NCBI GenBank assembly: GCA_041661265.1
Contig: JBAZUT010000002.1
Span: 76,316 to 140,315 of the forward strand
Length of the DNA stretch: 64,000 nucleotides
Source of the DNA: Minisyncoccota bacterium
GTDB lineage: Bacteria > Patescibacteriota > Minisyncoccia > JAHIHE01 > JAGLIN01
Direction of reading: 5' to 3'
Shown here: one piece after another, positions 182 to 56,474 of the stretch
Position numbering within the stretch: the first letter of the stretch is position 1
How the letters are laid out: every line of letters starts with the position of its first letter
The notes under the pieces: model-generated
What the model was told of the DNA's origin: nothing
The model's input: the letters and a program-made list of their open reading frames with translations, nothing else
The model's database searches: none
Made by a program: the position numbers and the translations under genes

Positions 182-640
182 TTAATCCGCCTTGATTGCA
201 TTCGGCAGGCTTTCTATTGACTTTTTCGCGACCGACAACAATACCGTGAACACGACAACGATCGCTCCCGTAAGGTTCATGAACATAAATGCCAGATCGG
301 GCGTTGCCGAGAATGGCACTCCAGCCTCGGCATATGTCCACGGCCTTATATACGTTACCAATACAAGCATGTATGCAACGATACTGGGAAGTATCACGGC
401 GCAAAGAGCCATTGATCTCACGAAAGTGCTGTGCGGTATCAGTCTGAATATTAATCTTGCAAATAATGTGCACTCAGCGGCTATCACAAACAAAACCGCC
501 AGATACATCGCAAATGCTTTGATGGCAATGATAATCCCGAATTCCGCAATTGCGATTATCATGCCGACAAGCAATAAACCCGCCAGAACCGAGACTATCA
601 GAATGAATGCCGCCCTCTCTTCAGAATATTCTTTTTCCAT
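182..640 (-). CDS. hypothetical small membrane protein (152 aa, about 4 TM helices)
   Basis: ORF with hydrophobic helices; weak purine-rich site upstream. Confidence 0.4.
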   Translation of the reverse strand: MEKEYSEERAAFILIVSVLAGLLLVGMIIAIAEFGIIIAIKAFAMYLAVLFVIAAECTLFARLIFRLIPHSTFVRSMALCAVILPSIVAYMLVLVTYIRPWTYAEAGVPFSATPDLAFMFMNLTGAIVVVFTVLLSVAKKSIESLPNAIKAD

Positions 641-903
641 TTCTTATCACCCTTTGTATGTTTTCAATGAATTTTAACTTTATATTTCCAGGCTGAATAT
701 GTTTCACCCGGACTTGCTATTTTACCACAAGATCCGGTTTTGTCAATCATCGCGCCAATATTCCATAAACTGGAATATTATCAATGGACACGGTCAGGAC
801 CGAAGCTGAAAAGATTATTCAGACCCTTGACGCGACCACGAACACATGCTAATGTCTTTATTCACGCTCAAACAAGGTGTGAAACGAAACAAAGAGGTAT
901 AAT

Positions 904-1080
904 ATGCTATCCGGACAACACGACGCGTTTATCGCTCTCGTTGGAACCCTGACGACAGTCGACCAGGTTGTAAGTGCAATGAATTTTGCCAGAATGGTAG
1001 ATGAAGACTCCCAGAATGGCATTTGGGAAGCCTGCCAGCAAGCTATGGCAAGAGTGCAAGTCAAACCGCCGGCTAAATAA
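904..1080 (+). CDS. small hypothetical protein (58 aa); not in the ORF track because it is under 60 aa
   Basis: ATG preceded by AAAGAGGT about 8 nt upstream; GC-richer than its surroundings; ends exactly where repeat R begins. Confidence 0.35.
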   Translation: MLSGQHDAFIALVGTLTTVDQVVSAMNFARMVDEDSQNGIWEACQQAMARVQVKPPAK

Positions 1081-1240
1081 AAGATGGATCAAATTCCATC
1101 TCATTTTTTTATTCAGCGTATGCCTATTCGCCTATTCGCGCGAATTAGAGATATTAAAAGATCCACGTAAAAGATATAAAGAAATAAAAAAATAATAGTT
1201 ACTTTTGGTAACTATTGCTTTCGGTTAAAACCGACATTCC
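1081..1240. repeat. intergenic repeat R copy 1 (second copy at 3105..3290); contains two hairpins
   Basis: About 85-90% identity by eye to 3105-3290; AATAGTTAC-TTTTG-GTAACTATT and CGGTT-AAAA-CCG hairpins. Confidence 0.6.
1194..1216. terminator. bidirectional hairpin between convergent genes
   Basis: Perfect 9-bp stem AATAGTTAC/GTAACTATT with 5-nt loop, A/T-rich flanks. Confidence 0.45.
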
Positions 1241-1243
1241 GCT

Positions 1244-1621
1244 TTATTTAGGAAGCAGCGTTTCCAATTTTTCTGATATTCTCATGCTTCCCTGAATGGA
1301 GGTTCCTCCCGGCGCTGAGCACGGAGACGGGCTTCCGGTCAGCGTTATCAAAACGCCTCCGTCTGAACTGCCCGCGAAAGATACGCACGATCTGTCACTT
1401 ACGCTTTTCAGCGATCCGCTCTCCCCTTTTTGCAGATCCTTTATCATGTCCAGATATTCAGCCCAATTTAATTTTGCGCTATAGTCGTATCTTCTGACAT
1501 CTTCCCTGTCGAAATCCTCGACTTCGAGAAAGACGAAATTTCCGTCACGGTACATTCTTGAATTGCTTGCATTATTTTCTTTTTCGCCGGTATTCCAAAA
1601 CACTTGCTTTTCGTCGCTCAT
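1244..1621 (-). CDS. hypothetical protein, paralog family A (125 aa)
   Basis: RBS AAAGAGG before ATG; paralogous to 3267..3578 (shared YDY, EY.DMIK and GSPSP motifs). Confidence 0.55.
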   Translation of the reverse strand: MSDEKQVFWNTGEKENNASNSRMYRDGNFVFLEVEDFDREDVRRYDYSAKLNWAEYLDMIKDLQKGESGSLKSVSDRSCVSFAGSSDGGVLITLTGSPSPCSAPGGTSIQGSMRISEKLETLLPK

Positions 1622-1723
1622 TATATCGCCTCTTTTGTCTGGCTTTGGCCATACTTCTTTTACTTCATACTATAATGTAATATTCCATATGTCAAAATCA
1701 GATCCCCCCTCCGAGGCAAGTTG

Positions 1724-1737
1724 TTGACATATGTCAA
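1724..1737. promoter_or_regulatory. 14-bp perfect palindrome TTGACATATGTCAA overlapping a -35-like hexamer upstream of 1788 CDS
   Basis: Palindrome seen directly; TTGACA-17 nt-TAAGAT arrangement. Confidence 0.3.
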
Positions 1738-1787
1738 TATTCATATTAAGATACGGTGTTTCACATAAAATAAATGGAGGTGAGATA

Positions 1788-2132
1788 ATGTGGACGGTAA
1801 AAGGAATCAATGGAAAAGTTTTTTTTATCAAAGGAGGATCGTCTGAAGCCGACGAACAAAAAGATGCCATTAGAGCGATATTACGGGCCTATCTGGATAC
1901 GGAAATAACTCTGGAAGATCCCGAGCCGGGATTATATGAATTAATCGTAATAAATTCATATTCTCATGGCGGACGGAAAGGCTGCATATATTTGAAATCA
2001 GAAGGTATTATATTTGTAGGGAATTATATACCTTCAAAAGACGAGTCAATAGAAGATGGCATTCATTTTGAAGAATTCAATTCAGGACAATCGGAGAAAC
2101 TCAGAGAGTTCCTTCGCCTTAAGCAGGTCTAA
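1788..2132 (+). CDS. hypothetical protein (about 115 aa)
   Basis: GGAGGTGA RBS 5 nt before ATG at 1788; ORF track ORF 1731..2132 probably starts too early. Confidence 0.5.
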   Translation: MWTVKGINGKVFFIKGGSSEADEQKDAIRAILRAYLDTEITLEDPEPGLYELIVINSYSHGGRKGCIYLKSEGIIFVGNYIPSKDESIEDGIHFEEFNSGQSEKLREFLRLKQV

Positions 2133-2265
2133 CCTGCTTTTATTTTATCCGTACTGCCGTTTTGGCATATTTACGGCTTGACATTTGGAGTGTTATTGCT
2201 ATAATACACCGTTCGAATCAGGCGCGCAAAACGTGCCACACCTGATCTCGACGGAGGTTTCAATA

Positions 2266-3075
2266 ATGGAAAACACAAAAGCCAAAACGGATATCAAGAT
2301 CAAGATCGAAAGTCTGAAAGAGAGGGATGACTTCGTTGAAACAATATCCATTTTAATGACAGAGAACCTGGAACGATACCTGGCAATGAAACGCAGAATA
2401 TGCCTTTTGGCCGGCTATGCAGAAATTACAGCCGAAGAGGAAAAGGGTGAAAAACAATACATCGCCCGGACAATTGAAAGCATAGCTTCGTTCTATCTCG
2501 ATGAGATCGACGAAGATGCACTGGCCAAAATACTTGCGGATCTCCTGCATGAAGAAGTTCCGAAATCCACCGCCACTGTCCGCGAGAACATGTGCGGATC
2601 GGTTTTGATCTGCAGCAGAAAAGAGCTGCCGGTGATAAAATGGCAGGTATTCCCCGCAGACACATCACAGCTGTTCGATCCCGCAAATGAGCTTTCAAAA
2701 GAGAAAGGGATCTCGCTCAGGGACTTTTTCAGATCCAAGGATCACTACAGGGAAATGATGGTTTCCCTATACGACAATCCGAATAGTTTCGCCCTGGATA
2801 TCACCATGCAAATAAAAGAATTCTTTGAACTGAGGCTCTCTGAATGTATTTTCATGGACCTGCTGGTCGACTCACAAGATCTGAGCAAAGTGCAAAGTTT
2901 TGTAAAAGCGAACAGGATCAATCGCCCGGAGGGAAAGAGGATCGCAACGGCAGGAGCCATAGTCGCCCTTGAATCCACGAAAGAGATTTTCGGAAATAAC
3001 GAATTGCAGGAGAAAAAACTGGCCATACTGAAAGAAGAACTCGAAGAGCTAAAAAAAACAGTAGTTCCAACCTAG
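2266..3075 (+). CDS. hypothetical protein (about 269 aa)
   Basis: ACGGAGGT RBS then ATG MENTKAK; ORF-track start at 2185 is likely upstream of the true start. Confidence 0.55.
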   Translation: MENTKAKTDIKIKIESLKERDDFVETISILMTENLERYLAMKRRICLLAGYAEITAEEEKGEKQYIARTIESIASFYLDEIDEDALAKILADLLHEEVPKSTATVRENMCGSVLICSRKELPVIKWQVFPADTSQLFDPANELSKEKGISLRDFFRSKDHYREMMVSLYDNPNSFALDITMQIKEFFELRLSECIFMDLLVDSQDLSKVQSFVKANRINRPEGKRIATAGAIVALESTKEIFGNNELQEKKLAILKEELEELKKTVVPT

Positions 3076-3104
3076 GACTACTTTTTTCTTATATTATATA
3101 AACA

Positions 3105-3290
3105 AAATGGATTAAATTCCATCTCATTTTTTTTCCAGCGTATGCCTATTCGCCTATTCGCGCGAATTAGAGATATTAAAAGATCCACGGAATAGATATA
3201 AAGAAATAAAAAATAATAGTTACTTTTGAGTAACTATCTGCTGCGGTTTAAAACCGATATTTTGTCTTATTTGGGAAGAAGCATCTTGAA
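3105..3290. repeat. intergenic repeat R copy 2
   Basis: Matches 1081-1240 including both hairpins. Confidence 0.6.
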
Positions 3291-3634
3291 TTCCAGCGGT
3301 ATTATCACAGTTCCTTTGATCTGCCTCCCTCCCGGAGAAACAGATGGCGAAGGAATGCCATATAACGTGAGCTCAGCGCGTCCGTTCCCTTTGTCCATGA
3401 AATAGACCGACGATCCGCCGTCTGCACCCTTGATAAGTCCACCCTCTCCATTCTGCATTTTTTTGATCATATCGACATATTCTGTCCAAGCCAGAACAGC
3501 GCGATAGTCATATCTTCTTTGATCTTCGCTATCATAACGTTCCACCTCCAAATATACAGAATCTCCATTCCTGTACATTCTTGAACTGTGAGCACAGGAC
3601 TGCGGTTCGCCTGTATTCCAAAATTCCTGTTCAT
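3267..3634 (-). pseudogene. frameshifted or truncated paralog of 1244..1621
   Basis: Upstream ATG at 3634 with GGAGGCG RBS is homologous to the copy-1 start but a 10-nt indel puts it out of frame; in-frame ORF only from internal Met (3578, 103 aa, no RBS). Confidence 0.4.
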
Positions 3635-3731
3635 TGTCGTTAATTATATCGCCTCCTTTGTCTGGCTTTTGCCAAACATCTTTTCCTCATACTATAATGT
3701 AATTTTCCATATGTCAAAATATCAAAGGGGT

Positions 3732-3890
3732 ATGTCGTTCCGAACTTGCTTGCCTCACCGTAGCTTTCGCGAAGGACAGGCCTGCCCCTGCCTCACGGCA
3801 GGCAGGGGCCTCCGGAGGAAGCTGGAATCCACATTTGTTTCGCAAATAATATTTATACGCACAATACGGAAGATGCTGAAACGAGTTCAG
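3732..3890. repeat. GC-rich element H copy 1 (candidate structured RNA or MITE-like repeat)
   Basis: About 80% identical to 4085-4250; internal hairpin GCCCCTGCC...GGCAGGGGC. Confidence 0.5.
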
Positions 3891-3938
3891 CATGACAATT
3901 CAGAAACCTGAATCAACCAAGGAAAGTGTTTTATACAA

Positions 3939-3966
3939 CACTATGATAATTCATATTATCATAGTG
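3939..3966. promoter_or_regulatory. perfect 12-bp inverted repeat CACTATGATAAT-TCAT-ATTATCATAGTG
   Basis: Seen directly; possible operator or hairpin. Confidence 0.3.
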
Positions 3967-4084
3967 CGGGAAAGAGTGAACAAACGCTATCTTAAAATTC
4001 TAGCCATAGCAATAAAATTAAGATAGTGGCATTTGAGAATAAAATAATAGATGGATCGAACTCCATCTCTTTTTTTAAAATAAT

Positions 4085-4250
4085 ATGTCATTCCAAACTT
4101 GCTTGCCTCGCCGTATCCGCCAGACGGCGGAGACAGACGGGCCTGCCCCTGCCTACCGGCAGGCAGGCGCCTATGGAGGAATCCGGAATCCACATTTCTT
4201 TCGAAATAATATTAATATGCATAATACGGTAGATGTTCAAATAATTATTT
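4085..4250. repeat. GC-rich element H copy 2
   Basis: Homologous to 3732-3890; preceded by a fragment of repeat R (AGATGGATCGAACTCCATCTC). Confidence 0.5.
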
Positions 4251-4254
4251 GCAA

Positions 4255-4338
4255 GTTCAAATCTCCGCATTTGAACCAAATATTTCTATACTAATAAATT
4301 AGAAACGTATGGTTCAGGTACGGAGACCTGAACCAACC
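4255..4338. repeat. attC-like imperfect-inverted-repeat element, copy 1
   Basis: ATCTCCGCATTTGAACC ... GGTTCAGGTACGGAGAC CTGAACCAACC; lies immediately 3' of the minus-strand cassette gene. Confidence 0.55.
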
Positions 4339-4343
4339 AAAAT

Positions 4344-4874
4344 CTAATTAATATTAGAACCTTGTGAAAGCTTAGAAACCTTCTGCAAAAATAGCGAACG
4401 ATTATTAGGATCAAGATCTTTTGTAAGAAAATCATAGGCCATTTTTTGTTCAGGATTCAAAATAACAAACTCGGGATTTTTAGCGTACATCCACAAAAGA
4501 AATGCCACAAATAATGGCTCTTTTTGTTTTGTTAAAAGATAATATAACTGCACAGCATCCCAAAGTACGAACTCATTAGTATCTGGATTAAATTTAATGT
4601 CCGCTTCTGAATCTCTATTTGCATGCTTAAAAAAATTCTTCGCTTCATTAAGTTTTTTTCCAAATTCATTTTGGCGTTCTTCGCGAACCGTTTCTAATAT
4701 TTGTGATTTTAAACTTTTTATTTTGCGCGCCCTACAAAGCGATTCGAACATTTCTTGAGCAGCAGAGCCTAGCGTATGAATTGAAACTGGATCATTTTTG
4801 TTTAAAAACATTTGTACAGCTTTATGCAATTGTCTTGATGCAGCATCAAGTTTTGAGATATGCATGAAAGTCAT
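4344..4874 (-). CDS. hypothetical protein (176 aa), cassette-like gene
   Basis: Clean ORF bounded by repeat elements; no recognisable family. Confidence 0.55.
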   Translation of the reverse strand: MTFMHISKLDAASRQLHKAVQMFLNKNDPVSIHTLGSAAQEMFESLCRARKIKSLKSQILETVREERQNEFGKKLNEAKNFFKHANRDSEADIKFNPDTNEFVLWDAVQLYYLLTKQKEPLFVAFLLWMYAKNPEFVILNPEQKMAYDFLTKDLDPNNRSLFLQKVSKLSQGSNIN

Positions 4875-4920
4875 TTATTTATCATTTACAATATAAAAAG
4901 ATAGATAATTACCCTCCGTT

Positions 4921-5005
4921 GGTTTAAATCTCCGCATTTGAACCAAATATTCCTATATTAATAAACTAGAAACGCATGGTTCAGGTGCGGAGACCTGAAC
5001 CAACC
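4921..5005. repeat. attC-like imperfect-inverted-repeat element, copy 2
   Basis: Near-identical to copy 1. Confidence 0.55.
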
Positions 5006-5016
5006 GAAAACATTAT

Positions 5017-5202
5017 TTATTCTGCCTTAATGCATACTCCGGTAAATTTATCACATTTCATAATTGTTTTAATTGTCGTTCCTTTTAAATCACCGAATCT
5101 TCGAGTTGATTCTGACGCTATAAAATAGTATCTATTGCTAAGCAGATATGCAATTGCAAATAATATAATCATAATAATTGCGATTGTAAATTTTTTGTCC
5201 AT
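5017..5202 (-). CDS. small membrane protein (61 aa), cassette-like gene
   Basis: ORF with N-terminal TM helix between two repeat copies. Confidence 0.35.
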   Translation of the reverse strand: MDKKFTIAIIMIILFAIAYLLSNRYYFIASESTRRFGDLKGTTIKTIMKCDKFTGVCIKAE

Positions 5203-5322
5203 AGGTTTTTGTATTCGTTTTTTAAATATTTTTAACTATAAAACATCCAACTCCTCCTATTAATTCTTTACTATACAACACTTACTGTCTATGTCGATAT
5301 CAACAACATTATATCCTTTAGT

Positions 5323-5402
5323 TGGTTCAAATCTCCGCATTTGAACCAAATATTTCTATTTTTTCAGAAACGGTTGATTCAGATGCGAATACCTAAACCA
5401 AT
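5323..5402. repeat. attC-like element copy 3 (right arm degenerate)
   Basis: Left arm TGGTTCAAATCTCCGCATTTGAACC conserved; right arm diverged. Confidence 0.45.
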
Positions 5403-5428
5403 TAATAATTCATATTGTTCATATACAT

Positions 5429-6079
5429 TTAATATTTCTTTGGAAAATACTTTTTCCCCACTTGCCACAAATATTTATCAACCTGTTTTAAAGTAAATTC
5501 ATTCAAGCCATAATATTTCCTAAAGTCTATAAGAATATCTTTATATTCTGGATATGATTTTAAATCTTGTCTTGAAAAATTACAGAATTTATCTTTCTTT
5601 TTGCAATATAACAGCATTTTTTCAACATACGAGTCATATATTGGATAAACTGTCGGTTTATGATGGCTGCAGTATTTTGTCGCAAATGAATAGAAATTAA
5701 TCATTCTTCCTCCTTTCATCCTGACATTTGCGATTTTATTTACTATTGTCAGATTATTTTTCAAAAGGCAATCGTCAATTTTTAACGCCACAATATGTTT
5801 TGCAATGGTAAATGGCGAATAAATATTTGTACTGTAGAAATCGTTTAATGAACATACTTTTATTAAAACATCATCAAGATTCTTATTCAATGGATAAGTT
5901 TTTGAAAACAATTTTCTCAAGCTGCTTTCCTGCATCATGTAATTTTCAAGAGAATTCCATCTTTTAAGATATTTTTTGATTTCTTTTTGCGACGGTTTGG
6001 GTATAACTTTACTTTTTAACATATGATTTTTGCTTCGCACTTTTGTTAAAACAACTTCATTTGAAAAAAATCCTGCCAT
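5429..6079 (-). CDS. hypothetical protein (216 aa), cassette-like gene
   Basis: Clean ORF; Lys/Tyr-rich; no family recognised. Confidence 0.55.
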   Translation of the reverse strand: MAGFFSNEVVLTKVRSKNHMLKSKVIPKPSQKEIKKYLKRWNSLENYMMQESSLRKLFSKTYPLNKNLDDVLIKVCSLNDFYSTNIYSPFTIAKHIVALKIDDCLLKNNLTIVNKIANVRMKGGRMINFYSFATKYCSHHKPTVYPIYDSYVEKMLLYCKKKDKFCNFSRQDLKSYPEYKDILIDFRKYYGLNEFTLKQVDKYLWQVGKKYFPKKY

Positions 6080-6167
6080 AAACTTGTTTCGGGAAATGTT
6101 GAGGTGGATTTATTCTACATGAAGATTATCAGATTGCCACGGCGCTTTTGTGCCTCACAATGAGTCA

Positions 6168-6215
6168 AATCCCCCTAAATCCCCCTTTTTCAAAGGGGGA
6201 AAAATAACCCGAATC
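6168..6215. repeat. C-run hairpin repeat AAATCCCCCTAAATCCCCCC-TTTTTCAAAGGGGGAAAA (copy 1)
   Basis: Second copy at 14891-14930; CCCCCTTT..AAAGGGGG hairpin. Confidence 0.5.
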
Positions 6216-6261: not shown

Positions 6262-7893
6262 TCATTTCCCCATCGACGCCTTAATGAATTCCACAAACAG
6301 CGGATGCGGTTTCAGGGGTCGAGATTTAAATTCAGGATGGAATTGGGTTCCGACAAAGAACGGATGCTCTTTTTTCGGAAGTTCCACGATCTCCATCAGC
6401 CTTTCGTCGGGAGAAGTTCCTGAGAAAACCATTCCCTTTGCTTCCAGCGTCCCGACATAATCGGGATTCACTTCCCACCTATGCCTGTGCCGTTCGGAAA
6501 TCTCAGAACTTTTATATGCTTTTCTTGCGATCGAGCCGTCTTTCAGTTTAGCCGGATATGCTCCCAGCCTCATCGTCGCGCCGAAGTTGCTGTCCTTCAG
6601 ATTCTTCTTCTGTTCCGGCATGATGTCGATCACGGGGTGCGGGGTCATCTCATCGATCTCCGTCGTATTGGCTCCTTCAAAACCGCAAACGTGGCGCGCA
6701 AACTCAATGCAGGCGATCTGCATTCCATAGCAAAGCCCGAGGAACGGGATCTTGTTCTTCCTGAGATATTCGATCGCCCTGATCTTTCCCTCGATCCCCC
6801 TGGCTCCGAATCCTCCCGGAACGATCACTCCGTCCATTGTTTTCAGCTCTTTCAGCTTTGCGGAATTCTTCTCATATTCTTCCGAATTTATCCATTCGAT
6901 GACCGGCTTTCTTCCCATAGCCCAGGCCGCATGCTTCACCGCCTCGATGACCGAGATATATGAATCCGACAAGACAAAATTTCCTGTGCTGAAATATTTT
7001 CCAACGATCCCGATCTTCACTGTTTTTGTGAGAGCGCGCCTCTTCTTCACCATTGCTCTCCATTCCTTGAGGTCCTTCTGCCTGATCCTCATGCCGAACT
7101 TGGAAAGTATTTTTTGCGCCAGGTCTTCATTGTCGAAATTGACCGGAACGTCATAGATCGATTCGACATCCGGAGCTGAAATGACAAAATCTTTCTCAAC
7201 ATTGCAGAACATCGATATTTTTCCCCTTCTGATCTCATCAATTGGAACTTCGCTCCTGCACATGATGAAATCAGGCTGGATCCCGACGGAGTTGAGCGAC
7301 CGCGTCGCATATTGCGTCGGCTTGGTCTTCATCTCTCCCACCTTATTCGGGATCGGCAGATAGCTCACCAGAAAGAAAAGCACATCTTTCGGATATTGCA
7401 GCTTGAGCATGCGGGCCGCCTCCAAAAAAAGAACGTTCTGATATTCCCCAACTGTTCCTCCGATCTCGACCATGACAAAATCCGCCTTCGTGTTCTTGGC
7501 CACTTTTTTTATCCTGCCAATGACCTCGAGCGGTATGTGCGGAACCACCTCGACGCACTTTCCTCCATATTCCAGATTTCTTTCGCGATGAATGACCGAC
7601 TCATAGACCCTGCCGGTCGTCATATAGTTATCCGAAAGTATATCCACATCCATGAATCTTTCATAATTCCCGATGTCCTGATCCGTTTCGATCCCGTCAT
7701 CGGTCACAAAGACCTCTCCATGCTCTATCGGATTCATCGTTCCCGCATCCACGTTTATATACGGATCTATCTTGATTGCCGTGACTGAGAAACCTTTGCT
7801 CTGAAGAACCTTGCCGATAGAAGCTGTCGCAATGCCTTTTCCCACGCCCGACATCACTCCGCCCGCAACAAATATATACTTTGTCCTTGGCAT
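6262..7893 (-). CDS. pyrG: CTP synthase
   Basis: N-terminal synthetase P-loop GGVMSGVGKG and glutamine amidotransferase GLCYGMQ motif; 543 aa. Confidence 0.97.
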   Translation of the reverse strand: MPRTKYIFVAGGVMSGVGKGIATASIGKVLQSKGFSVTAIKIDPYINVDAGTMNPIEHGEVFVTDDGIETDQDIGNYERFMDVDILSDNYMTTGRVYESVIHRERNLEYGGKCVEVVPHIPLEVIGRIKKVAKNTKADFVMVEIGGTVGEYQNVLFLEAARMLKLQYPKDVLFFLVSYLPIPNKVGEMKTKPTQYATRSLNSVGIQPDFIMCRSEVPIDEIRRGKISMFCNVEKDFVISAPDVESIYDVPVNFDNEDLAQKILSKFGMRIRQKDLKEWRAMVKKRRALTKTVKIGIVGKYFSTGNFVLSDSYISVIEAVKHAAWAMGRKPVIEWINSEEYEKNSAKLKELKTMDGVIVPGGFGARGIEGKIRAIEYLRKNKIPFLGLCYGMQIACIEFARHVCGFEGANTTEIDEMTPHPVIDIMPEQKKNLKDSNFGATMRLGAYPAKLKDGSIARKAYKSSEISERHRHRWEVNPDYVGTLEAKGMVFSGTSPDERLMEIVELPKKEHPFFVGTQFHPEFKSRPLKPHPLFVEFIKASMGK

Positions 7894-13303: not shown

Positions 13304-14443
13304 TTAACCTCTTTTTTTTATTGACTCAATATTCCGCAATATCTCATCCGCGCATCTTTGCCAGCTGAACCTTTTTAGATTCTCCCGCCCCAGCAAAACC
13401 AATTTTTCCCTATAGGGTCCGTCAAGGATCAGCCTTTTCATACTATCATATATTTCTTTTTCCGTATTGTGTCCGACATATTCAACGGAATTTCCCCCCG
13501 CCTCCGGAAGCGAGCTTCCTCGGGTCGTAACGACGGGTTTATCGAATTTCTGCGCTTCAACAACCGGAAGGCCGAACCCCTCATAATCCGACAGATAGAT
13601 CACGAATTCACAGCCGCCATACAAATAATTCAGCTCTTCCTCCGCCACCGAATCAATATGCAGAATGGCATTTCTTCCAAGTTTTTTGTTGATATCGGCC
13701 GCCTGGCCGTCAATATCCTCAAAGGGATATGTATGATTCTTTCCAAGCACGACAAGCTGATAATCATTAAGCTCTTCGGATATTTTCCCAAAGGCCCTGA
13801 TCAATTCCGGAACATGCCTCCTGGTGAAGATTGAACCTATATAAAGGATATATTTTCCTTCTATCTTGTACTTGCCCGGCTTTTCCCCCATTTCAGACGC
13901 GCTCCTGTCCTTTTTTTCAAACCCCTCATCACATGCAAGATAGGTCACCTTGATCTTTTCCGGGCTTGTTCCATAGTATTTTATGATCTCATTCTTGCTG
14001 AACTCCGATATCGTGAAAATAAGATCGGTCGATTTCGCCGAATATTTCGACATCATCCTCAGAATGAACTGGCTTCGGGAATCGAACCACTCGGGATGCG
14101 CTTCATATGAAATGTCATGGAGCGCAACCGATGATCTTGCGGGACAATAAAAAGGCTTCAGATAAAAAGGCGAAAAGAAGAAATCAACCCTATCTTTTTT
14201 TATATTTATCGGAATAAGGACATGCTGGAAGAAAAAATTGCTCGAAAACCCAAAAGCGCTTCCAAGAAGCTTCGGGCGGAAATTAGAGCTCTTCAGATAT
14301 TCTTCCTGCGGTATCCTGTTTTTGAAATAAAGCAGAAATTCATGCTCCGGATGGTCTTTCCAGCGCTTCAAAACATTGGAAAGATATCTTCCCACTCCAG
14401 TTGTCGGCTGCTCAAGGCTTCTTGCATCGATCGCAATGATCAT
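13304..14443 (-). CDS. glycosyltransferase family 4 (GT1-like fold)
   Basis: EGFGLPVVEA motif. Confidence 0.85.
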   Translation of the reverse strand: MIIAIDARSLEQPTTGVGRYLSNVLKRWKDHPEHEFLLYFKNRIPQEEYLKSSNFRPKLLGSAFGFSSNFFFQHVLIPINIKKDRVDFFFSPFYLKPFYCPARSSVALHDISYEAHPEWFDSRSQFILRMMSKYSAKSTDLIFTISEFSKNEIIKYYGTSPEKIKVTYLACDEGFEKKDRSASEMGEKPGKYKIEGKYILYIGSIFTRRHVPELIRAFGKISEELNDYQLVVLGKNHTYPFEDIDGQAADINKKLGRNAILHIDSVAEEELNYLYGGCEFVIYLSDYEGFGLPVVEAQKFDKPVVTTRGSSLPEAGGNSVEYVGHNTEKEIYDSMKRLILDGPYREKLVLLGRENLKRFSWQRCADEILRNIESIKKRG

Positions 14444-14485
14444 TTGATTGAATTATATTATATACTGCTATGAAAAGGAAACTTG

Positions 14486-14525
14486 CACTCCTCCCCTTGG
14501 AAAAAGGAGGTTGGGAGGGATTTTC
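14486..14525. repeat. 40-bp direct repeat DR1 flanking the DUF559 gene
   Basis: CACTCCTCCCCTTGGAAAAAGGAGGTTGGGAGGGATTTTC; near-identical to 14952-14991. Confidence 0.6.
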
Positions 14526-14877
14526 AATTCATCTCTTCATAAATCTTTTCAACAACTCCCTCAATATTCTTCAAAACCTCTATATTTGTAAATCTCAGAA
14601 CTTTTAAACCACAATCTTGCATATATCCATCCCGGACTCTGTCTTTTTCTTTATTCACATTTTCGCAGTGCTGTCCGCCATCTACTTCTATTACCAATTT
14701 AGCGCATGAACAATAAAAATCCACTATATAATTGCCAATTGTTTTCTGGCGATAAAACTGACTATCCTTTATTTGCCTACCTCTTATTTTCAACCAAAGC
14801 AATTTTTCAGCATCTGTCATATTCTTACGAAGTTCCCGCGCTCTGGATTTTAGTTTTTTATTATATTGTAGAATCAT
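14524..14877 (-). CDS. DUF559 endonuclease-domain protein (Vsr-like fold)
   Basis: LLW..LR...FRRQ..IG.YI.DF.C...KLVIE.DG..H...D..RD..L...G..VLRF.N..V pattern. Confidence 0.8.
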   Translation of the reverse strand: MILQYNKKLKSRARELRKNMTDAEKLLWLKIRGRQIKDSQFYRQKTIGNYIVDFYCSCAKLVIEVDGGQHCENVNKEKDRVRDGYMQDCGLKVLRFTNIEVLKNIEGVVEKIYEEMN

Positions 14878-14890
14878 GAATCATTTAATG

Positions 14891-14930
14891 CAAATCCCCC
14901 TTAATCCCCCTTTATAAAGGGGGAAATAGA
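14891..14930. repeat. C-run hairpin repeat copy 2
   Basis: CAAATCCCCCTTAATCCCCCTTTATAAAGGGGGAAATAGA matches 6168-6215. Confidence 0.5.
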
Positions 14931-14951
14931 TTTGATTATCTTTTTTTTATT

Positions 14952-14991
14952 CACTCCTCCCTTTTGAAAAGGGAGGTTGGGAGGGATTTTT
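14952..14991. repeat. 40-bp direct repeat DR2
   Basis: TCACTCCTCCCTTTTGAAAAGGGAGGTTGGGAGGGATTTT. Confidence 0.6.
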
Positions 14992-15082
14992 TAATAATTT
15001 CCAAAATGCAGTCTTCTATTTATGCAATAATCATTTGCTACATAATTTCACAATACTATTTAATAAAATCAAAGTCAAACAA

Positions 15083-15112
15083 AAACCCCGCATGTGCACA
15101 TGATGGGTTTTT
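15083..15112 (-). terminator. rho-independent terminator downstream of hup
   Basis: AAAACCCC-GCATGTGCACATGAT-GGGTTTTT; stem plus U-run, loop holds 12-nt palindrome CATGTGCACATG. Confidence 0.6.
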
Positions 15113-15127
15113 GTAAAACTGACTGTA

Positions 15128-15412
15128 TTATTTTACGGCATCCTTCAGGCTCTTGCCTGCTTTGAACTTTGGAACCGTCATTGCCGGGATCTGGATCTTT
15201 TCGCCCGGTTTCTGAGGATTAACTCCTACTCTTGCAGCTCTCTTGCTTACAGAGAAAGTGCCGAATCCTGTCAGAGCGACCTTTCCGCCCTCAACTAGAG
15301 TCTTGGTTATGGCTTCTAATGCAGCGTTTACGACCAATTCAACTTCCTTTTTTGAAACGTCCGTTTTTGCTGCAATACTGCCGATAAGTTCGTCTTTTGT
15401 CATTTTTGACAC
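15128..15412 (-). CDS. hup: HU family DNA-binding protein
   Basis: MTKDELI...GFGTF...R.GRNP.T signature. Confidence 0.92.
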   Translation of the reverse strand: MSKMTKDELIGSIAAKTDVSKKEVELVVNAALEAITKTLVEGGKVALTGFGTFSVSKRAARVGVNPQKPGEKIQIPAMTVPKFKAGKSLKDAVK

Positions 15413-15511
15413 CCCCTTTCTTTATAAAATCTAAATTTAAATTAAAATCGATTTTTTAAACTGATTGCGACTATAGTGAATTATACACAAACGGCTAAAA
15501 TAAAGCAAATT

Positions 15512-17949: not shown

Positions 17950-18270
17950 TTTTTTCTCCTAGATCCGATCGGCCAATTTTGCTGATGCATGATCCGGAAA
18001 TACGCGCCGGCGTCTTCGATTTTGTCCTAGACGCGGGGCGGAGTTCAGCTATATTTTGCCAAAACCTAACAATGAGGCCGCAAACTGCGCCCCTTCCTTA
18101 GGATTACTATGATAAAACCGCTTTTTATAGCCAAAATTTTTATTCATAAATTAACAAAATACTCGCTTGCCGGATCATTCGATACAATCTTTTCCGATCG
18201 TTATTAATAATTTAACTTACAGAACCATGTTATCAGATAGAATGGATATTGTCAAAATGTTACCGGTATT

Positions 18271-19530
18271 TCATTCAAATCTCAAAGCTTCGATAGGATT
18301 CAGTCCTGCCGCTTTTTTGGCAGGGTACCACCCGAAAACGATCCCGAAGAAAGCGGCTACGAAAAAAGAAATAAGAATGGCTTCCACGGATATGACATAT
18401 GGCCAGGCGAATCCAAATGAATTTATGGCATAGGTTATTGCGAGGGATACCATAATACCCATTACTATCCCGATCACTCCTCCAAGAACAGAGATCAGGA
18501 TCGCCTCAAGCACGAACTGTATCAGGATATCCTTTTGCTTCGCCCCCAAGGCCTTGCGAAGACCGATCTCTTTTGTCCTCTCTGTGACTATGACAAGCAT
18601 TATATTCATGATACCGACCCCTCCCACCAGAAGGGATATTGCCGCAAGAAGTCCAAGAAGGAGAGATATTGCTCCGGTCACCGAATTCACTATATCCAGG
18701 ATCTGGCTGACCGCTACTATTTCAAAATCGTCATTTTTAGGATCCGCTATGTGGTGTCTTTGCCTCATAAGCTTCGCGATCTCGCTCCTGGCCTGCGGGA
18801 TAAATGCCTCGTCTGAGATCTTGATCCCTATTTCCATTATATAATCGATCCCAAGAAGCATCTTCTGCCCAGTCAAAAGCGGCACCACGACCATCTCATC
18901 CATGTTTATGCCGAACATGATCCCTCTTGACTTCAGAACTCCCACAACCTTAAAACTCACCTGTTTTATTTTAATTGATCTTCCGACGGCATTCTCGGAA
19001 CCGAAAAATTTCTTTGCCACATCGCCTCCGATCACGATAACCCTGGCCACGGCGCTGTTCTCATCCTCTGTGAAAAATCTTCCGCTGTCTATCTTCATCT
19101 GACCGTCTATTGCCGGATAGAAAGAATCGGAAGCAAGAATAAATACTTTTTTTTCTTTTTCCTCGTATTTTGCCACATCCATCGAAGAGGTATATCCGGA
19201 AACTGCTTCGATATACGGAAAGACTCTTCTGTCTCTCATGGCTACAGCATCATCTCCCTTGAGGGTCGTTACAACTATCCCCTCCGCTCTGGAACGCGCG
19301 CTATTTCCAAGATCGCTCCCGGGAATTTTGACCTGCACCGAGATCAGATTTGAACCGAATGAATTGATCTGATTTACGACCAAAGCTTTCAATCCCTGGC
19401 CTACGGAAACAATAATAATAACGGCAGCGACTCCGATGACTATGCCCAAAACGGACAAAGCCGTTCTCGTCTTGTTCGCTTTGAGGCCGATATACGCAAG
19501 TTTTATGATCTTGGGATTGATAATTGACAT
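18271..19530 (-). CDS. ABC transporter permease, FtsX/MacB-like (copy 1)
   Basis: N-terminal TM, large periplasmic domain, C-terminal 3 TM with GLRKALGA motif. Confidence 0.85.
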   Translation of the reverse strand: MSIINPKIIKLAYIGLKANKTRTALSVLGIVIGVAAVIIIVSVGQGLKALVVNQINSFGSNLISVQVKIPGSDLGNSARSRAEGIVVTTLKGDDAVAMRDRRVFPYIEAVSGYTSSMDVAKYEEKEKKVFILASDSFYPAIDGQMKIDSGRFFTEDENSAVARVIVIGGDVAKKFFGSENAVGRSIKIKQVSFKVVGVLKSRGIMFGINMDEMVVVPLLTGQKMLLGIDYIMEIGIKISDEAFIPQARSEIAKLMRQRHHIADPKNDDFEIVAVSQILDIVNSVTGAISLLLGLLAAISLLVGGVGIMNIMLVIVTERTKEIGLRKALGAKQKDILIQFVLEAILISVLGGVIGIVMGIMVSLAITYAINSFGFAWPYVISVEAILISFFVAAFFGIVFGWYPAKKAAGLNPIEALRFE

Positions 19531-20024
19531 ATTATTGTTTTTTTGATAGCGCTAGATGTCAGGTTTGAACTGAACTTTCAAATCTTGTACAACTTATGGA
19601 GATTGAAAAATTGAGCGAACAGAATGATGAAAATATAAAAGTCGTGATCACCGACATTGACGGCAGCATGATGCCCCAGGGAGGCCCGATGGCTTCATTG
19701 CCGAACAAAGAGACGGACTCGGCCTTGTCGAAGGAATACTGCACTATGCCGAAAACGGATATTTCGATGAGCGAACTGCCAAAAAAATACAACAAAAGAT
19801 CGACGAACTGAAAATTTTCTGAAACAAGGAGAGATAAAGTTATCTCTTTTTTTATCGGTCAAAATCATGAATAATTCCGCTCTTATAAGTTTCTGCCTGG
19901 TCGAATATTATCCATCATTCATGCAATAATCCCTCCTACGATAAATTTATTATTGAATTCATGAAATATTCAAAGATTATTCATATATTTTTCATTTTGA
20001 TCTTTAAATTTTTATTTTTAAATA

Positions 20025-21254
20025 TTATTCGTATCTCAATGCTTCGATCGCATTTAATTTTGCCGCCTTATGGGCCGGGTAAAGTCCAAAAACGATCCCG
20101 ATGATCACCGCAACAGACACGGAAATTATAACTGAAAAAGGAGAGATAATCATCTCCCAGTGATACCCGAGATATTGCAGAACGAGAGCGATCAAAACCG
20201 AAAATATCGACCCCAGGATCACTCCGATAGACCCGCCGACGAAAGTAAGCATTACGGATTCCACAAGGAACTGGTTCCTGATATCGGACCGCTTGGCGCC
20301 GATCGCCTTTCGAAGACCGATCTCCCTGGTCCGTTCCGTCACGCTGACCAGCATGATGTTCATTATCCCGACTCCGCCCACAATGAGAGATATGGCAGCA
20401 ATCGCACCCAGGAACAGATTAAGGGCATTTGTCACGCTTCCGATTATGTCCAGCGCTTGCGTCATGCTGCGCACCGTAAAATCTGCCTTAGCGGGATCGG
20501 TTATGTTGTGCCTCTGCATCAATAATTTGCGTATCATACTTATGGCCATTGGAATGTTCTCTTTCAGGTCCACCTTGCCCCTAAGAAAAGAAATATGGTC
20601 GATCCCCAGCATGATCTTCTGCGCCGTCTTGACCGGAATAAAGACCTGGTCGTCCTGGCCGGAGACGGATGAACCTTTCTTCTTCAAAATGCCGACGACG
20701 ACGAAACTCTCCTGATCTATTTTCACCCTCCTTCCGATCGCGTTTTCCGCGATGAATAATTTTTCATAAACGGAATTTCCCAGAACCACGATCCTGGAAA
20801 CGCTTTCATCTTCATCCTGGACAATGAATCTTCCGCTCACGACTTCCGCATTTTCAACGTTGATGAAATCCGAAGTCACTCCCGAAAAAGTGGCATTTTT
20901 CGATCTGTTTTCATAGGAAATATCGGCATTCCCATTGACATACGGGGTTACGGCGATGATATGGGGGATCTTTTTGATCTCTTTGGCGTCATCATAGGTG
21001 AGCGTCGTTATCACAACCCCGAACATCGATGAAGGCGGACCGCCTTCCTCGCTGGCGCCGGGAAGAACCCCTACGAGATTGCTTCCAAGGGATTCGATCT
21101 GATTGAAAACATAGCTTTGCGCCCCTGCGCCCACCGCCATGATCGTTATGACACTGCCCACTCCTATGATGATTCCCAGCATAGTCAAAAAAGACCGCCT
21201 TTTGTTGACAGCGATGTTTCCAAGTGCAAATTTAATAATTTTAACAATTTTCAT
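20025..21254 (-). CDS. ABC transporter permease, FtsX/MacB-like (copy 2)
   Basis: Paralog of 18271..19530 (GLRKAIGA motif). Confidence 0.85.
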   Translation of the reverse strand: MKIVKIIKFALGNIAVNKRRSFLTMLGIIIGVGSVITIMAVGAGAQSYVFNQIESLGSNLVGVLPGASEEGGPPSSMFGVVITTLTYDDAKEIKKIPHIIAVTPYVNGNADISYENRSKNATFSGVTSDFINVENAEVVSGRFIVQDEDESVSRIVVLGNSVYEKLFIAENAIGRRVKIDQESFVVVGILKKKGSSVSGQDDQVFIPVKTAQKIMLGIDHISFLRGKVDLKENIPMAISMIRKLLMQRHNITDPAKADFTVRSMTQALDIIGSVTNALNLFLGAIAAISLIVGGVGIMNIMLVSVTERTREIGLRKAIGAKRSDIRNQFLVESVMLTFVGGSIGVILGSIFSVLIALVLQYLGYHWEMIISPFSVIISVSVAVIIGIVFGLYPAHKAAKLNAIEALRYE

Positions 21255-32337: not shown

Positions 32338-32407
32338 ACTATCCGATATTCGAGTGATCGGGAAAATGCATTACGGAAAGCGCCTTGTTGGTGCTTTTTT
32401 TCGATTT

Positions 32408-32416
32408 GTGGTATAA
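32408..32416 (+). promoter_or_regulatory. extended -10 promoter element TGgTATAAT upstream of the giant gene
   Basis: TGGTATAAT 35 nt before the ATG; no SD sequence seen. Confidence 0.35.
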
Positions 32417-32450
32417 TAATGTCGACATTAATATAAATAAAAATAAAAAT

Positions 32451-35400
32451 ATGACCCCCAGGACCCTTTGCAGGCAAATAGTTTTTCTAGTTGCCTTCTT
32501 TGCTATAATAGCACAGGTGACTTCCCTGACGATACAAAATACCGGTTTTTCTTTGGCTTCGACGACTACAGGCGACACATCTGCGATCATCAATATGCCA
32601 TTGACTATGAATAACGGCGCGGCAGATTTTCCGCCGTCTTCCGGAATGACATTGAACGGCGCGGAAATTTTCAAGGCCAGCGTAAGCATGTCATACGTAC
32701 CGTTAATCAGCATACCAGGTCAGGCAAGTTTAAGCGGAATAACTTTTTATTTAGGTGCGAATTCAATGCCGGCAAATAAGGTTAACCCTAGTGACCCTGT
32801 CGAGGTTGACTATATTTTTAATTCTTTCAGCACCGGTTCGTTGACCGATGGAACATATGATTTTTATGCTAAAGCTTTTTATGGCAGTTCCGCTACGGTG
32901 GAGAGCGATCATTACACAGTAATTCTTGCCAGAACACCGCTTGCTCCGACGAGTTTGACGGTAGATGGAGCTCCTACCGCTTCGTCCATTAAGCTTAGAT
33001 GGATCAACCAGTCGACTACCGCGGATAAGTTTACTATAGAAAGAAAAGAAAGTTCATTGAGCAATTATACGGCTCTTCCTCTGTATGAAGTTCCAAATGC
33101 AACTACCTATACGGATGGTACGGTTGCAGCCGGAACTTCATATGATTACCGAATTCAGGCATGCAGATCCGGATCCGGTTGTTCGGGGCATTCAAATGTG
33201 ATCACTGTCAGTTCTGCCGAAAATTGTTCGCTTACTGTTTCGCTCTCCCCTGATACTCAGGCTGCTCAGTATGTCAGCCCGGGCCAAAGCGAAGCTTCTT
33301 TGGTGAAATTCAACCTTTTTCCGAATTGCGCTATTACACTGAATAGCCTCTCTGTTTCGCTCAATGGTTATACAAACATTTCCTCATTGCATCTCTACGA
33401 TAGCTCAACCCAAGTGAATGCGGTTAGTGTTGCCGGAGCAAGTGCAAGTTTTGATGGTTTAAATATACAAATTCCTGCAAGCCTGACCAGGTCTATTGAG
33501 ATCAGGGGAGATATTAATTCTTCTGCAATGTCCGGTTCAATGGTTTCTGGATCTTTTGGATCCTTTACGGCAACCAGCGCCTCAGGCTCAGTTGGCAGCA
33601 GCAACACAAGCGTTGTCGTCGGCAATGTAATGACCGTAAGCGGATATGCCGGCGATACAATTCCACCCGCCATACCGACGGAACTTGCTGCTCCAAAAAA
33701 TGATTATAACGAAGTTGATCTTTCATGGGCCGCATCCACCGATAATGTCGGAGTCGCAGGATACGAGGTTTGGAGAACTAACGGAACATGGATCAGATTA
33801 GGAAATTCTCCCACAACTTCATACATAGATACAACTGTTGCTTCGGGAACAGGTTATTATTACAAAATTATCGCATACGATGCGGCAGGAAATAAATCTC
33901 CCGAGCCGTCCCAGAGTGCATGGTTATTTTTAAACACTCCCGCATCAACGAGCTTGCCTTTACCTCCGTCCTATGTAACTGCTGAATCGATCGTCGGAAA
34001 AATTGTCGTCAGTTGGCCGCCAGCCGCCTCGGCCACAAAATACAGCATTCATAGAAAAATTGGCACGGGGACCTACCAACCCTTATCCTCAAATATAACC
34101 ATTTCTTATTATGACGACGTAAATGTTACTACTGGCAGTGTTTATCGATACAAGGTCATGGGCTGTGATGCCACCGCATGCTCAACAACAGGAACGGAAT
34201 CAAATTCTGTAACATATAACGGAGGCGGCGCGTCTTGCACCAGCTTGACTTCGGCTATTAATGACGCAGATACATCCTATGTTGCAAGTGAGCCTGTAAA
34301 CTTCACCTGGACATGTTCTCCCGGCGGTATTGCCAGTAATGTCTATATGAAGCTTTATAGATCGGATGGCACAGTCGTATCCTCTTTGAACAGCCCCAAT
34401 AATATAGGTACTCAGACATTGTATCTTAGTACTTTGAATTTATCTATTGGGTCATATATTGTTAAGGCCTGTTTCGAGTCTAATTGTTCAACGACCGCTA
34501 CCAGTCAGACATTTACGGTAGTTTCCGGCACCTCGACCGCTCCCGCCTTCACCGTATCGCCGATAGTTACTGAAAAAATAGGATACCCTTCAAAGAGGAT
34601 AATGAAAGTTGAAACGGTTTCCAGTCCGACCGGATATACGCCGACGAATATTATCGGCAAAATAAAAGATTCGTCGGGAAATATCGTCGGAAACACGACA
34701 TTCAATTTAGTTCTTCAAACTGTAGGATATTGGACATATGAATATGACATAAGCAGTCTCGCCGGAAATTACAATTTCTGCGCAAGCGGGATGTTTAACA
34801 CGACTTCCATTCCATGGGCCTGTACCACGGCCGCATTTACAGTGGCGACCACCACCCCTTCCGCCACGAGCATTTCAATTTATCCCGATGTGTTGAACAG
34901 TGCTGGAACGTTCAAAACACTGCAGATCACGGTGATGCCGTCAGGAACAAAACTGTATAACGTTTCAGGAAAGATCCGCAAGGACGGCGCATTTGGAGCC
35001 ATAGCATTCGATTCTATCGCGCTGACCTTCGATCCCTATTCAGCCTCCTGGAGAAAAGAATTTGATATGGGAAATCTCGCGGCCGGCGGAAATTATGTTT
35101 TTTGCGCAAAAGCTTCTCTTGATAGCACCGGATCAAACCCGATGCCCGAGGTTTGTACTGGAATATTCACCATAGACATCGCTGCTCCGGTGGATCAAAC
35201 CGCCACAACAACTCCTCAGCTCGAAGTGTATTTCCAGAATATCACACCTTTGGCGATCAAAGGGGATGTCAAAATTGCCATAAAAACAAATATTGAACCC
35301 GACATTGTGAACTTTAAACTGCAGAGAGAATCGGGTTCGGCCACCTATCCGGCGGCCAACAAGATCGACGCCACCAATTTCTATTTCCTATGGAATACGG

Positions 35401-56268: not shown

Positions 56269-56474
56269 CTTAATTTCCCACCCCCGCTTTCAGTTACCGG
56301 GTAAAACTTATTTTTTGATAAGTATTTCAGTTTCAAGAAAGATTCTTCAATCTCTGGTTTTTAATTAATATTCCAATAACTTAATTTAAAAATTATATAT
56401 TCAGAAATTATTTAGGAATTAGAAATTAGAAATTAAAAATTAATTGTAAACATATAGCACAAAAAGAATTCAGG

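Follow-up and report, generated by a model that had tools for sequence, protein, structure and literature searches.

A unit of about 505 bp, made up of one gene for a predicted DUF559 nuclease and three copies of a three-block hairpin repeat, occupies positions 14486-14990 of a 64,000-nt stretch of DNA from a Minisyncoccota bacterium (GCA_041661265.1, contig JBAZUT010000002.1, positions 76,316-140,315 of the forward strand; hereafter the window). The description of this unit as a mobile nuclease cassette, in which the repeats are parts of the unit and not scars of an insertion, is supported in substance, and its movement we infer. A fuller reading, to which we give an even chance, is that the unit is a selfish or semi-selfish cassette whose repeats belong to the BoxC/PIT (potential intrastrand triplex) type. 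The architecture of gene plus repeats recurs across many bacterial phyla with a fixed polarity, and at least one genome holds such a unit that has recently made a copy of itself in the loop of another repeat. In the following, a module is the three-block hairpin repeat, a cassette is a DUF559 gene with its modules, and L numbers (L001 etc.) denote the comparison loci or contigs. The gene and the modules of the window are:

14524-14877, minus strand: gene for a DUF559 (Vsr-like PD-(D/E)XK) nuclease, as predicted; intact open reading frame (ORF) of 117 aa, Pfam PF04480
14486-14524, minus strand: 3' module, degenerate (direct repeat 1); Y-Y-R on the gene strand; cmsearch 40.9 bits, E=2.5e-11
14891-14929, plus strand: 5' module (the "C-run hairpin"), ending 20 nt before the ATG; cmsearch 48.0 bits, E=1.2e-13
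14952-14990, minus strand: second 3'-type module (direct repeat 2), upstream of the 5' module; cmsearch 44.7 bits, E=1.5e-12
6166-6204, plus strand: solitary module; cmsearch 49.9 bits, E=3.1e-14, the best score in the window

The two 40-bp direct repeats that a preliminary description of this DNA had placed around a 117-aa DUF559 gene, between a GT4 glycosyltransferase gene and hup, are real. The copies at 14486-14525 and 14952-14991 are identical at 36 of 40 positions (84% over 50 nt; 35/38 in a local alignment), and the 19-mer common to both, GGAGGTTGGGAGGGATTTT, occurs nowhere else in the 64 kb, with 0.03 chance matches expected. On the gene strand their sequence is AAAATCCCTCCC-AA-CCTCCC-ttttcaaaa-GGGAGG: a pair of C-blocks, then a loop and a single G-block. 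Before the ATG the same strand has tttCCCCCtttataaaGGGGGattaaGGGGGAttt, in which a C-block and its complementary G-block enclose a loop and a further G-block follows after a short spacer. Since Y-Y-R is the reverse-complement form of Y-R-R, the 40-bp repeat and the C-run hairpin are one module family in opposite orientations. The C-run hairpin (14891-14930) had earlier been listed as a separate repeat with a relative near 6166-6204; both copies exist, but they are the same family reversed. The claim that each direct repeat is a hairpin holds for the copy at 14952 (CTCCC-TTTTGAAAA-GGGAG; DNA stem of 9 bp, -8.9 kcal/mol, z -2.55) and only weakly for the degenerate copy at 14486 (stem of 5 bp, z +0.36). 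The module at 14891-14929 forms an 8-bp DNA hairpin of -7.8 kcal/mol. Together with the module at 14952 it makes an inverted doublet, and the region 14880-15000 folds with an outer stem that joins the extra blocks (-20.8 kcal/mol, z -2.6). The extra blocks GGGGGATTT and AAATCCC are complementary to each other. Inverted modules stand on either side of the DUF559 gene, each with its extra block towards the gene, the third module being a direct copy of the 3' one; the 3' module at 14486-14524 begins at the final base of the DUF559 stop codon. As plain inverted repeats the window modules are only 71-74% complementary.

A covariance model was built from 48 aligned modules beside DUF559 genes of other organisms and searched against the window with filters off. 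It gave exactly four full-length matches (40.9-49.9 bits, E from 3e-14 to 2.5e-11), the next full-length match having E=0.048, and an independent strict pattern detector recovered the identical four sites, three at the cassette and one solitary. The solitary module lies 58 nt downstream of pyrG (6262-7893) and 88 nt upstream of a 216-aa ORF (5429-6079), relative to which it is oriented as a 5'-type module. This ORF had no match in Pfam, NCBIfam, PADLOC or PHROG, and a tblastn and six-frame profile search found no second DUF559 gene or remnant near the solitary module or elsewhere in the window. No module was called as an intrinsic (rho-independent) terminator, the sole terminator-like call in 14300-15500 lying within the GT4 gene, and an Rfam scan of the window at the gathering score returned only the tmRNA at 55881-56271.

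All four window modules have the three-block order Y-R-R or its complement Y-Y-R, and the third block runs antiparallel to the purine arm, which is the orientation needed for a purine-motif triplex. For 14891-14929, nine perfect Y-R-R triads are possible with Y=TCCCCCTTT, R1=AAAGGGGGA and R2=AGGGGGATT; nine are also possible for 14952-14990 (plus strand) and for 6166-6204. By their sequence, three of the four modules satisfy the ITxF criteria for a triplex (at least 6 triads of G.G-C, A.A-T or T.A-T, at most one mismatch, loops of 1-6 nt; PMC4666352). The fit takes in the near-invariant ATT tail. The degenerate module at 14486-14524 has no triplex-compatible register under these criteria.

The protein belongs to DUF559 by profile, core residues and fold, from which its nuclease role is predicted. 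Pfam PF04480 matched with E=7.8e-38 and 129.2 bits (cut-off 20.6) over profile positions 2-108 of 109. The conserved core of the family, an E-x-D-G-x-x-H block with flanking D and R residues, is present, and all 18 of the residues invariant among 36 homologues are kept, including E64, D66, G67, H70, D79 and R82. The sequence matched PDB 3hrl (N. gonorrhoeae NGO0050, a structural-genomics entry) with E=5.6e-28. The AlphaFold model (pLDDT 87.5) retrieved the same entry first in Foldseek (TM 0.87), then the catalytic domain of I-Bth0305I (PDB 3r3p; E=8.8e-4, TM 0.55-0.65), followed by the nuclease domains of PvuRts1I and AbaSI. In the predicted structure the 117 aa form a bare, compact, single nuclease domain without an extra DNA-binding domain. 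NGO0050 and E. coli YcjD are of the same family and size; the NCBIfam model of YcjD, PRK09767, matched with E=3.2e-26 and 91.7 bits, under its equivalog cut-off of 218. The family is very large, at least 7,999 of 8,000 candidates scored reaching E<=0.001.

Vsr and Caulobacter VsrA belong to the same superfamily, and VsrA contains a DUF559 domain; we know of no Vsr gene that carries flanking three-block repeats. The window protein had no match to the Vsr Pfam profile, only to DUF559 and, below threshold, to MTES_1575. No C5-cytosine methyltransferase adjoins its gene (the neighbours are GT4 and HU; the remaining window was not searched for methyltransferases), and it was therefore not assigned to a Vsr very-short-patch repair system. 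Searches of defence-system libraries gave only partial DpdF and methyl-directed restriction-endonuclease domain matches, which reflect shared nuclease-domain similarity only.

To see how far the arrangement extends, 160 loci with DUF559 homologues of 44-66% identity were gathered from GTDB genomes and JGI metagenomes, covering many phyla. With a sequence profile, a Y-R-R (C-loop-G-G) module was found within 60 nt upstream of 74 of 156 DUF559 genes, against 6 in the other orientation, and a Y-Y-R (C-C-loop-G) module within 60 nt downstream of 68 of 156, again against 6. Both modules accompany 49 of the 156 genes and at least one accompanies 92. Among control ORFs (120 aa or longer) of these loci, 1 of 144 had a module upstream and 2 of 144 had one downstream. 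A stricter detector gave 84/149 versus 3 in the other orientation upstream and 50/146 versus 13 downstream, and module density was 1.51/kb within 300 nt of a DUF559 gene compared with 0.10/kb elsewhere. Hairpins spread through genomes without regard to DUF559, the outcome that the preliminary description had named as fatal to its own cassette reading, are thus not what we found: the modules are tied specifically to these genes. The extra block is always gene-proximal. In 39 of 84 loci, 7-13 nt separate the end of the G-version from the start codon, and the 3' extra C-block starts 0-3 nt past the stop codon or overlaps the final codons, the latter being the reason why some database proteins carry odd 'PFTKGGLGDF' and 'SPLTPL' extensions. 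In 11 further homologue loci a 3'-type module lies 61-200 nt upstream of the DUF559 gene, as it does in the window. Many loci that are negative by the low-GC profile come from GC-rich organisms and show by eye a GC-rich version, CCCTCTCCC...GGGAGAGGG..GGGTGAGGG. In the module alignment 6 of 9 pairs vary on both sides, with a covariation score of 0.196 versus 0.166 after shuffling, a comparison biased by the selection of perfect stems. Stem mismatches, counted as a test of RNA- versus DNA-level selection, were 18 T.G versus 3 C.A, mostly from over-extended stem ends. Some Clostridia DUF559 genes (L073, L076, L081, L083) have another flanking repeat, for example actccctcagtctcgctgcgttcgacagctccctcggcgagggag, in direct copies on both sides, and the coupling of gene and repeat may extend to other repeat families.

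It could be argued that this association is passive. The modules would then be independent miniature repeats, otherwise mobilised or born of recombination, which gather beside DUF559 genes because these sit in dispensable, recombination-prone spacers or because modules insert preferentially next to each other. The arrays and doublets seen at some loci (L014, L128, L100) fit such a picture, as do the unrelated small palindromes nested in some modules (L001, L017, L019) and the solitary state of most E. coli copies. The fixed polarity, the tight spacing to start and stop codons and the near absence of modules from other ORFs of the same loci do not. Nor do two observations described below, a whole unit kept between unrelated neighbourhoods at 74% protein identity and a gene that moves with its modules as one piece. 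We consider a passive association quite improbable.

The module is not private to the cassette. It belongs to a widely dispersed class known as BoxC, PIT or "triplex motif" repeats, the GC-rich version being the E. coli element (PMC4666352). For this element, TMECO, Holder et al. (2015) gave the consensus CCCTCNCCC N3-6 GGGNGAGGG N3 GGGNGAGGG; they counted 23 copies in MG1655, of which five form inverted doublets, found the motif in >260 genomes, showed that single-stranded oligonucleotides form a purine-motif triplex in vitro, and noted that the loci are unusually rearranged between strains (PMC4666352). The likeness to the window modules extends to the Y block, the complementary R block, the second, mirror-symmetric R block and the short loops between them, and to intergenic placement in either orientation, often as inverted doublets, at rearrangement-prone loci. 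Unlike the published elements, the window modules are low in GC and off the published consensus, which has no match in the window and one beside E. coli ycjD; they represent a low-GC sequence variant of the architecture with the blocks TCCCCCTTT / CCTCCCTTT. They differ further in being tied with fixed polarity to a nuclease gene, whereas the published work gives neither an associated gene nor a link to mobile elements.

E. coli ycjD (117 aa, DUF559; NC_000913.3 1351000-1351900, L167) is itself flanked by such motifs. A module abuts its stop codon, a duplicated fragment of about 40 nt from the 3' end of ycjD follows downstream of that module, and a consensus TMECO stands 168 nt downstream of the gene, before fabI. 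None of the three is annotated in RefSeq. With 23 copies in 4.6 Mb, we estimate the chance of a TMECO within 200 nt of a given gene at ~0.002. The sapF-fabI interval holds either eefRABCD or ycjD in different strains (PMC12817139), so that this gene, too, has an alternative allele. It is only ~44% identical to the window protein, its profile score for that protein is sub-equivalog, and its module is of a different subtype. The TMECO paper mentions neither ycjD nor any nuclease (PMC4666352), and we found no published work in the open-access literature that links DUF559 or ycjD to these repeats; the pairing of these two known things is apparently undescribed.

The positions of the modules raise the question of whether they serve to control the expression of an ordinary Vsr-like repair nuclease that benefits its host and whose presence and absence would be ordinary gene gain and loss. 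In such a scheme the 5' hairpin would present or sequester a G-rich Shine-Dalgarno block and the 3' hairpin would stabilise the mRNA end; the 5' G-block could also pair with the 3' C-block and block translation, as in the fold-back inhibition of hok, and the direct repeat would be incidental. The distances of the blocks to start and stop codons and the complementarity of GGGGGATTT with AAATCCC speak for it, as do the chromosomal location of the family and Caulobacter VsrA, a chromosomal DNA-damage-inducible nuclease (PMC12907096). On the other side, modules also occur alone (6166-6204 without a gene remnant; 23 in E. coli), PIT elements had no promoter or terminator activity in earlier tests cited by PMC4666352, no module is a canonical terminator, and the window G-block is 20 nt from the ATG. 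Moreover, the mirror symmetry is conserved, ATT tail included, and agrees with a DNA triplex of the purine motif, a structure that cannot form in RNA (PMC4666352), and the insertion footprint and flanking duplications reported below would be left unexplained. We regard expression signals as an unlikely account of the whole. The modules may additionally serve expression, given the gene-proximal G-block at Shine-Dalgarno distance in many homologues; solitary copies, the inactivity of PIT elements and a mirror symmetry of the DNA type indicate that there is more to the modules than control of expression.

Relatives of the hup-GT4 locus were found through the exact HU protein and fell into two classes, with and without the cassette. 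The features on which the comparison turns are:

13304-14443, minus strand: GT4 glycosyltransferase gene, neighbour of the DUF559 gene
15128-15403, minus strand: HU gene (hup), neighbour on the other side, followed by YmdB and RNase Y
14444-15047, no strand: segment of 604 bp without counterpart in the cassette-less alleles, from alignment and direct reading
15050-15078, minus strand: promoter-like site TTGACT-17-TATTGT, weak, from a consensus scan only; present in both alleles

L001, L002 and L004 carry the cassette in a form identical to that of the window, L001 differing only by a nested palindrome of 20 nt. L003 and L005, from two other samples, have an identical HU and a GT4 gene ~93% identical, and their 238-bp hup-GT4 spacer contains no DUF559 gene. 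They contain not one module, even when searched with filters off at E<=1, so that an empty site retaining one copy of the 40-bp repeat, expected from the preliminary description, was looked for there and not found. In its place they hold ~155 bp of other sequence upstream of GT4, including (AAATACT)x5 (L003 3140-3180, L005 2480-2518). Homology between the window and these alleles stops after AAATAGTATTGTGA (window 15048), just past the promoter-like site, and resumes at the GT4 ATG (14443); the cassette thus separates the promoter-like site from the GT4 start codon. Because the cassette-less alleles have no module, the direct repeats are internal parts of the unit and not a target duplication or att scar: both arrived or left together with the gene, and the whole unit is present or absent. 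Two candidate traces of an insertion were set aside. 'ATTTTGCAAAGGAG' in L003 resembles half a module too faintly to be used, and a 21-nt inverted repeat (14443-14463/15053-15073) is AT-rich, 76% complementary and has one arm in the cassette-less allele too.

The palindrome in L001 (1400-1530, compared with window 14880-14930) is GCCTGCCAGCCGGCAGGCAG; it lies within the 5' module, beside a DUF559 protein that is 100% identical. Mini-palindromes of the form CCTGCC...GGCAGG also occur within L017 and L019 modules and, in the window, at 3775-3845 and 4136-4206, and look like a second, nested family of tiny insertions.

The same unit occurs elsewhere. L169 encodes a 74%-identical protein among unrelated neighbours and has the same module-module-gene-module order and subtypes: a CCCTCCC-type module, a CCCCC-type module in opposite orientation, the gene, and a CCCTCC-type module. 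Since its similarity to the window ends at the outer modules, the ends of the unit can be placed at ~14486 and ~14990. The earlier view of a discrete cassette of about 500 bp is borne out by its absence from L003 and L005 and its presence in L169.

A transposon-like footprint was found in two contigs, L022 (2433-2936) and L072, of one deltaproteobacterial metagenome-assembled genome (MAG). They have ~505 bp in common at ~99% identity, consisting of a 5' module, a DUF559 gene and a 3' module, and are otherwise unrelated except for the target hairpin. The element is bounded by perfect 20-bp inverted ends, GGGCATA(A/G)GCGCTAACTTAA ... TTAAGTTAGCGCTTATGCCC. Both copies interrupt the loop of a hairpin of the GC-rich module type (CCCTCCCCC/GGGGGAGGG) and show 5-bp direct duplications (TTGAC|TTGAC and ATCGA|CTCGA), so that the target is itself a module. 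These two copies support the mobility that the preliminary description had proposed. An end sequence related to that of L022/L072, GGGCAAACGCGCTAACTTAA, is also seen in L069.

Could the window cassette instead be a classical free-standing homing endonuclease gene, which cuts the cassette-less hup-GT4 spacer and is copied in by repair with its modules co-converted? The protein is related in fold to the catalytic domain of I-Bth0305I, an EDxHD/Vsr-like homing endonuclease, and selfish genes of that kind are likewise polymorphic for presence and absence, as are the alleles seen here in natural populations. Weak PHROG matches to HNH/homing endonuclease families and the duplicated host-gene ends around some cassettes, which resemble co-conversion products, point the same way. 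I-Bth0305I is, however, intron-encoded and has extra DNA-binding regions, whereas the window protein is a single nuclease domain of 117 aa with no separate DNA-binding domain, lies in a spacer and has its own repeats. The alleles differ over ~600 versus ~155 bp with no precise junction, related cassettes occupy many unrelated sites and not one conserved target, and the one clear footprint, in module loops with a 5-bp duplication, is unlike homing. We hold this explanation to be very unlikely, and the homing cassette of the preliminary description is not supported, the diverged allele flanks giving no insertion point or recognition site.

Duplications around the gene are a recurrent feature. 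When the 450 nt upstream were compared with the 450 nt downstream, direct repeats were found in 28 of 106 loci versus 1 of 120 control positions; they usually begin immediately 3' of the stop codon. In L166 (840-1565), 139 nt from the 5' end of an IorA-like gene occur on both sides of the cassette (127/139 identical), and the cassette stands between a 43-codon N-terminal fragment of that gene and the intact gene downstream; the same is seen in L018, L140, L151, L155, L162 and L164. Members of the L166 subfamily are also found directly after the stop codon of a LivH-like permease gene (L133, L147, L018). The window direct repeat is the minimal form of this flanking-duplication pattern. DUF559 genes are enriched among predicted inversion targets with an odds ratio of 14 (PMC9881135), an over-representation that is expected because the genes are bracketed by inverted repeats.

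How might such a cassette move? In the mechanism we propose, the DUF559 nuclease would recognise module DNA, either as duplex or as a hairpin or triplex extruded during replication or transcription, and nick or cut it. The break would be repaired by recombination, and repair would copy the gene, or modules alone, into other module-bearing or nearby sites. Such copying would explain the direct duplications at the flanks, the inverted doublets and the instability of the genome that is reported around the repeats. That the nuclease cuts the module and that recombinational repair spreads arrays with or without the gene is a tentative proposal, which we would put somewhat short of an even chance. 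Broader still, and to our minds doubtful, is the idea that small DUF559 nucleases are the missing enzymatic partner of BoxC/PIT/triplex-motif repeats across most bacterial phyla, including E. coli K-12 with ycjD and its 23 TMECO copies. In that case the target of the nuclease would be the three-block DNA in its folded state, for instance the hairpin loop into which the L022/L072 element went, and the nuclease would drive the spread of the repeats and of its own gene as well as the instability at these sites.

The logic would be that of RAYT and REP, carried out by a different enzyme. RAYTs are REP-associated tyrosine transposases flanked by cognate REP hairpins, on which they are thought to act. 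As in RAYT-REP/REPIN systems, a small nuclease gene is here bracketed by inverted hairpin repeats, the repeat is also dispersed, both singly and in inverted doublets, and the whole is chromosomal and not borne by plasmids or phages. The enzymes differ, since the window protein is of the PD-(D/E)XK Vsr-like type and RAYT is an HUH Y1 (IS200/IS605-like) transposase, and so do the repeats, three-block with triplex potential in the window and a simple hairpin in REP. The PD-(D/E)XK fold rules out membership of the RAYT-REP family, although the cassette may work similarly.

Several points weigh against a selfish cassette that spreads by its own nuclease. About 40% of the homologues have no module by the low-GC profile. 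The spacer flanks differ between the alleles, so that no precise junction or insertion point is legible, and because these flanks have diverged, gain and loss of the window cassette are indistinguishable. The window cassette lacks sharp ends, a short target duplication and any additional terminal inverted repeats, and was accordingly not classed as a transposon or miniature inverted-repeat transposable element (MITE), which the related L022/L072 element would be by its ends and target duplications. That clean footprint comes from one genome with two copies, and its extra 20-bp ends are absent from the window. In E. coli, 22 of the 23 TMECO copies are not beside ycjD, most being solitary, and Holder et al. 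reported no link of TMECO to flanking gene function or mobile elements (PMC4666352). DUF559 homologues are scarce on plasmids (44 of 72,556 records) and phages (5 of 50,697), and carriage by either was rejected as a vehicle on this ground. Action of any DUF559 protein on modules is a prediction, and the only functional study of a DUF559 protein, that of VsrA, which damages DNA when its cognate methylation is missing, suggests a Vsr-like role related to repair or methylation (PMC12907096).

Several other features were seen in the window. An intergenic repeat of ~55-100 nt with two hairpins, GTTCAAATctccgcATTTGAAC and GGTTCAGGTncggagACCTGAACC, occurs at 60-114, 4238-4342, 4905-5009 and 5308-5362 and separates small ORFs (4344-4874, 5429-6079). 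The segments 1074-1664 and 3097-3687, 2,023 bp apart, are 71-95% identical, with an 87-nt non-coding stretch at 95%, and contain paralogous small ORFs (1244-1621, 3267-3578) without a family match; Pfam and PHROG searches of the ORFs of unassigned function within 182-6079 gave no matches. A 72-nt-periodic repeat (MPPEC...C motif) at 35849-36860, within a 1,852-aa ORF (32385-37943), looks like part of a Cys-rich tandem-repeat protein. Adjacent paralogous genes (18271-19530, 20025-21254) have 70-72% DNA identity over 18268-18647 and 20022-20401. The tmRNA gene encodes an unusually long tag peptide, AKSLTEKVASLFRMPSFSTAIA.

BoxC/PIT repeats have been catalogued since the 1990s in E. coli and hundreds of genomes and tied to rearrangements, with no function, origin or protein assigned to them, while DUF559 is a very large family on whose function there are hardly any data. 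Should the nuclease act on the repeats, these two open questions would merge into a single testable one, for which ycjD of E. coli K-12 is a ready model. It would also be a second case of the RAYT-REP logic, in which a nuclease gene is paired with its own dispersed repeats, here with a different fold and a non-B DNA structure. If the modules are instead expression signals, they would still represent a widespread and undescribed pair of elements in the 5' and 3' untranslated regions (UTRs) of these genes.

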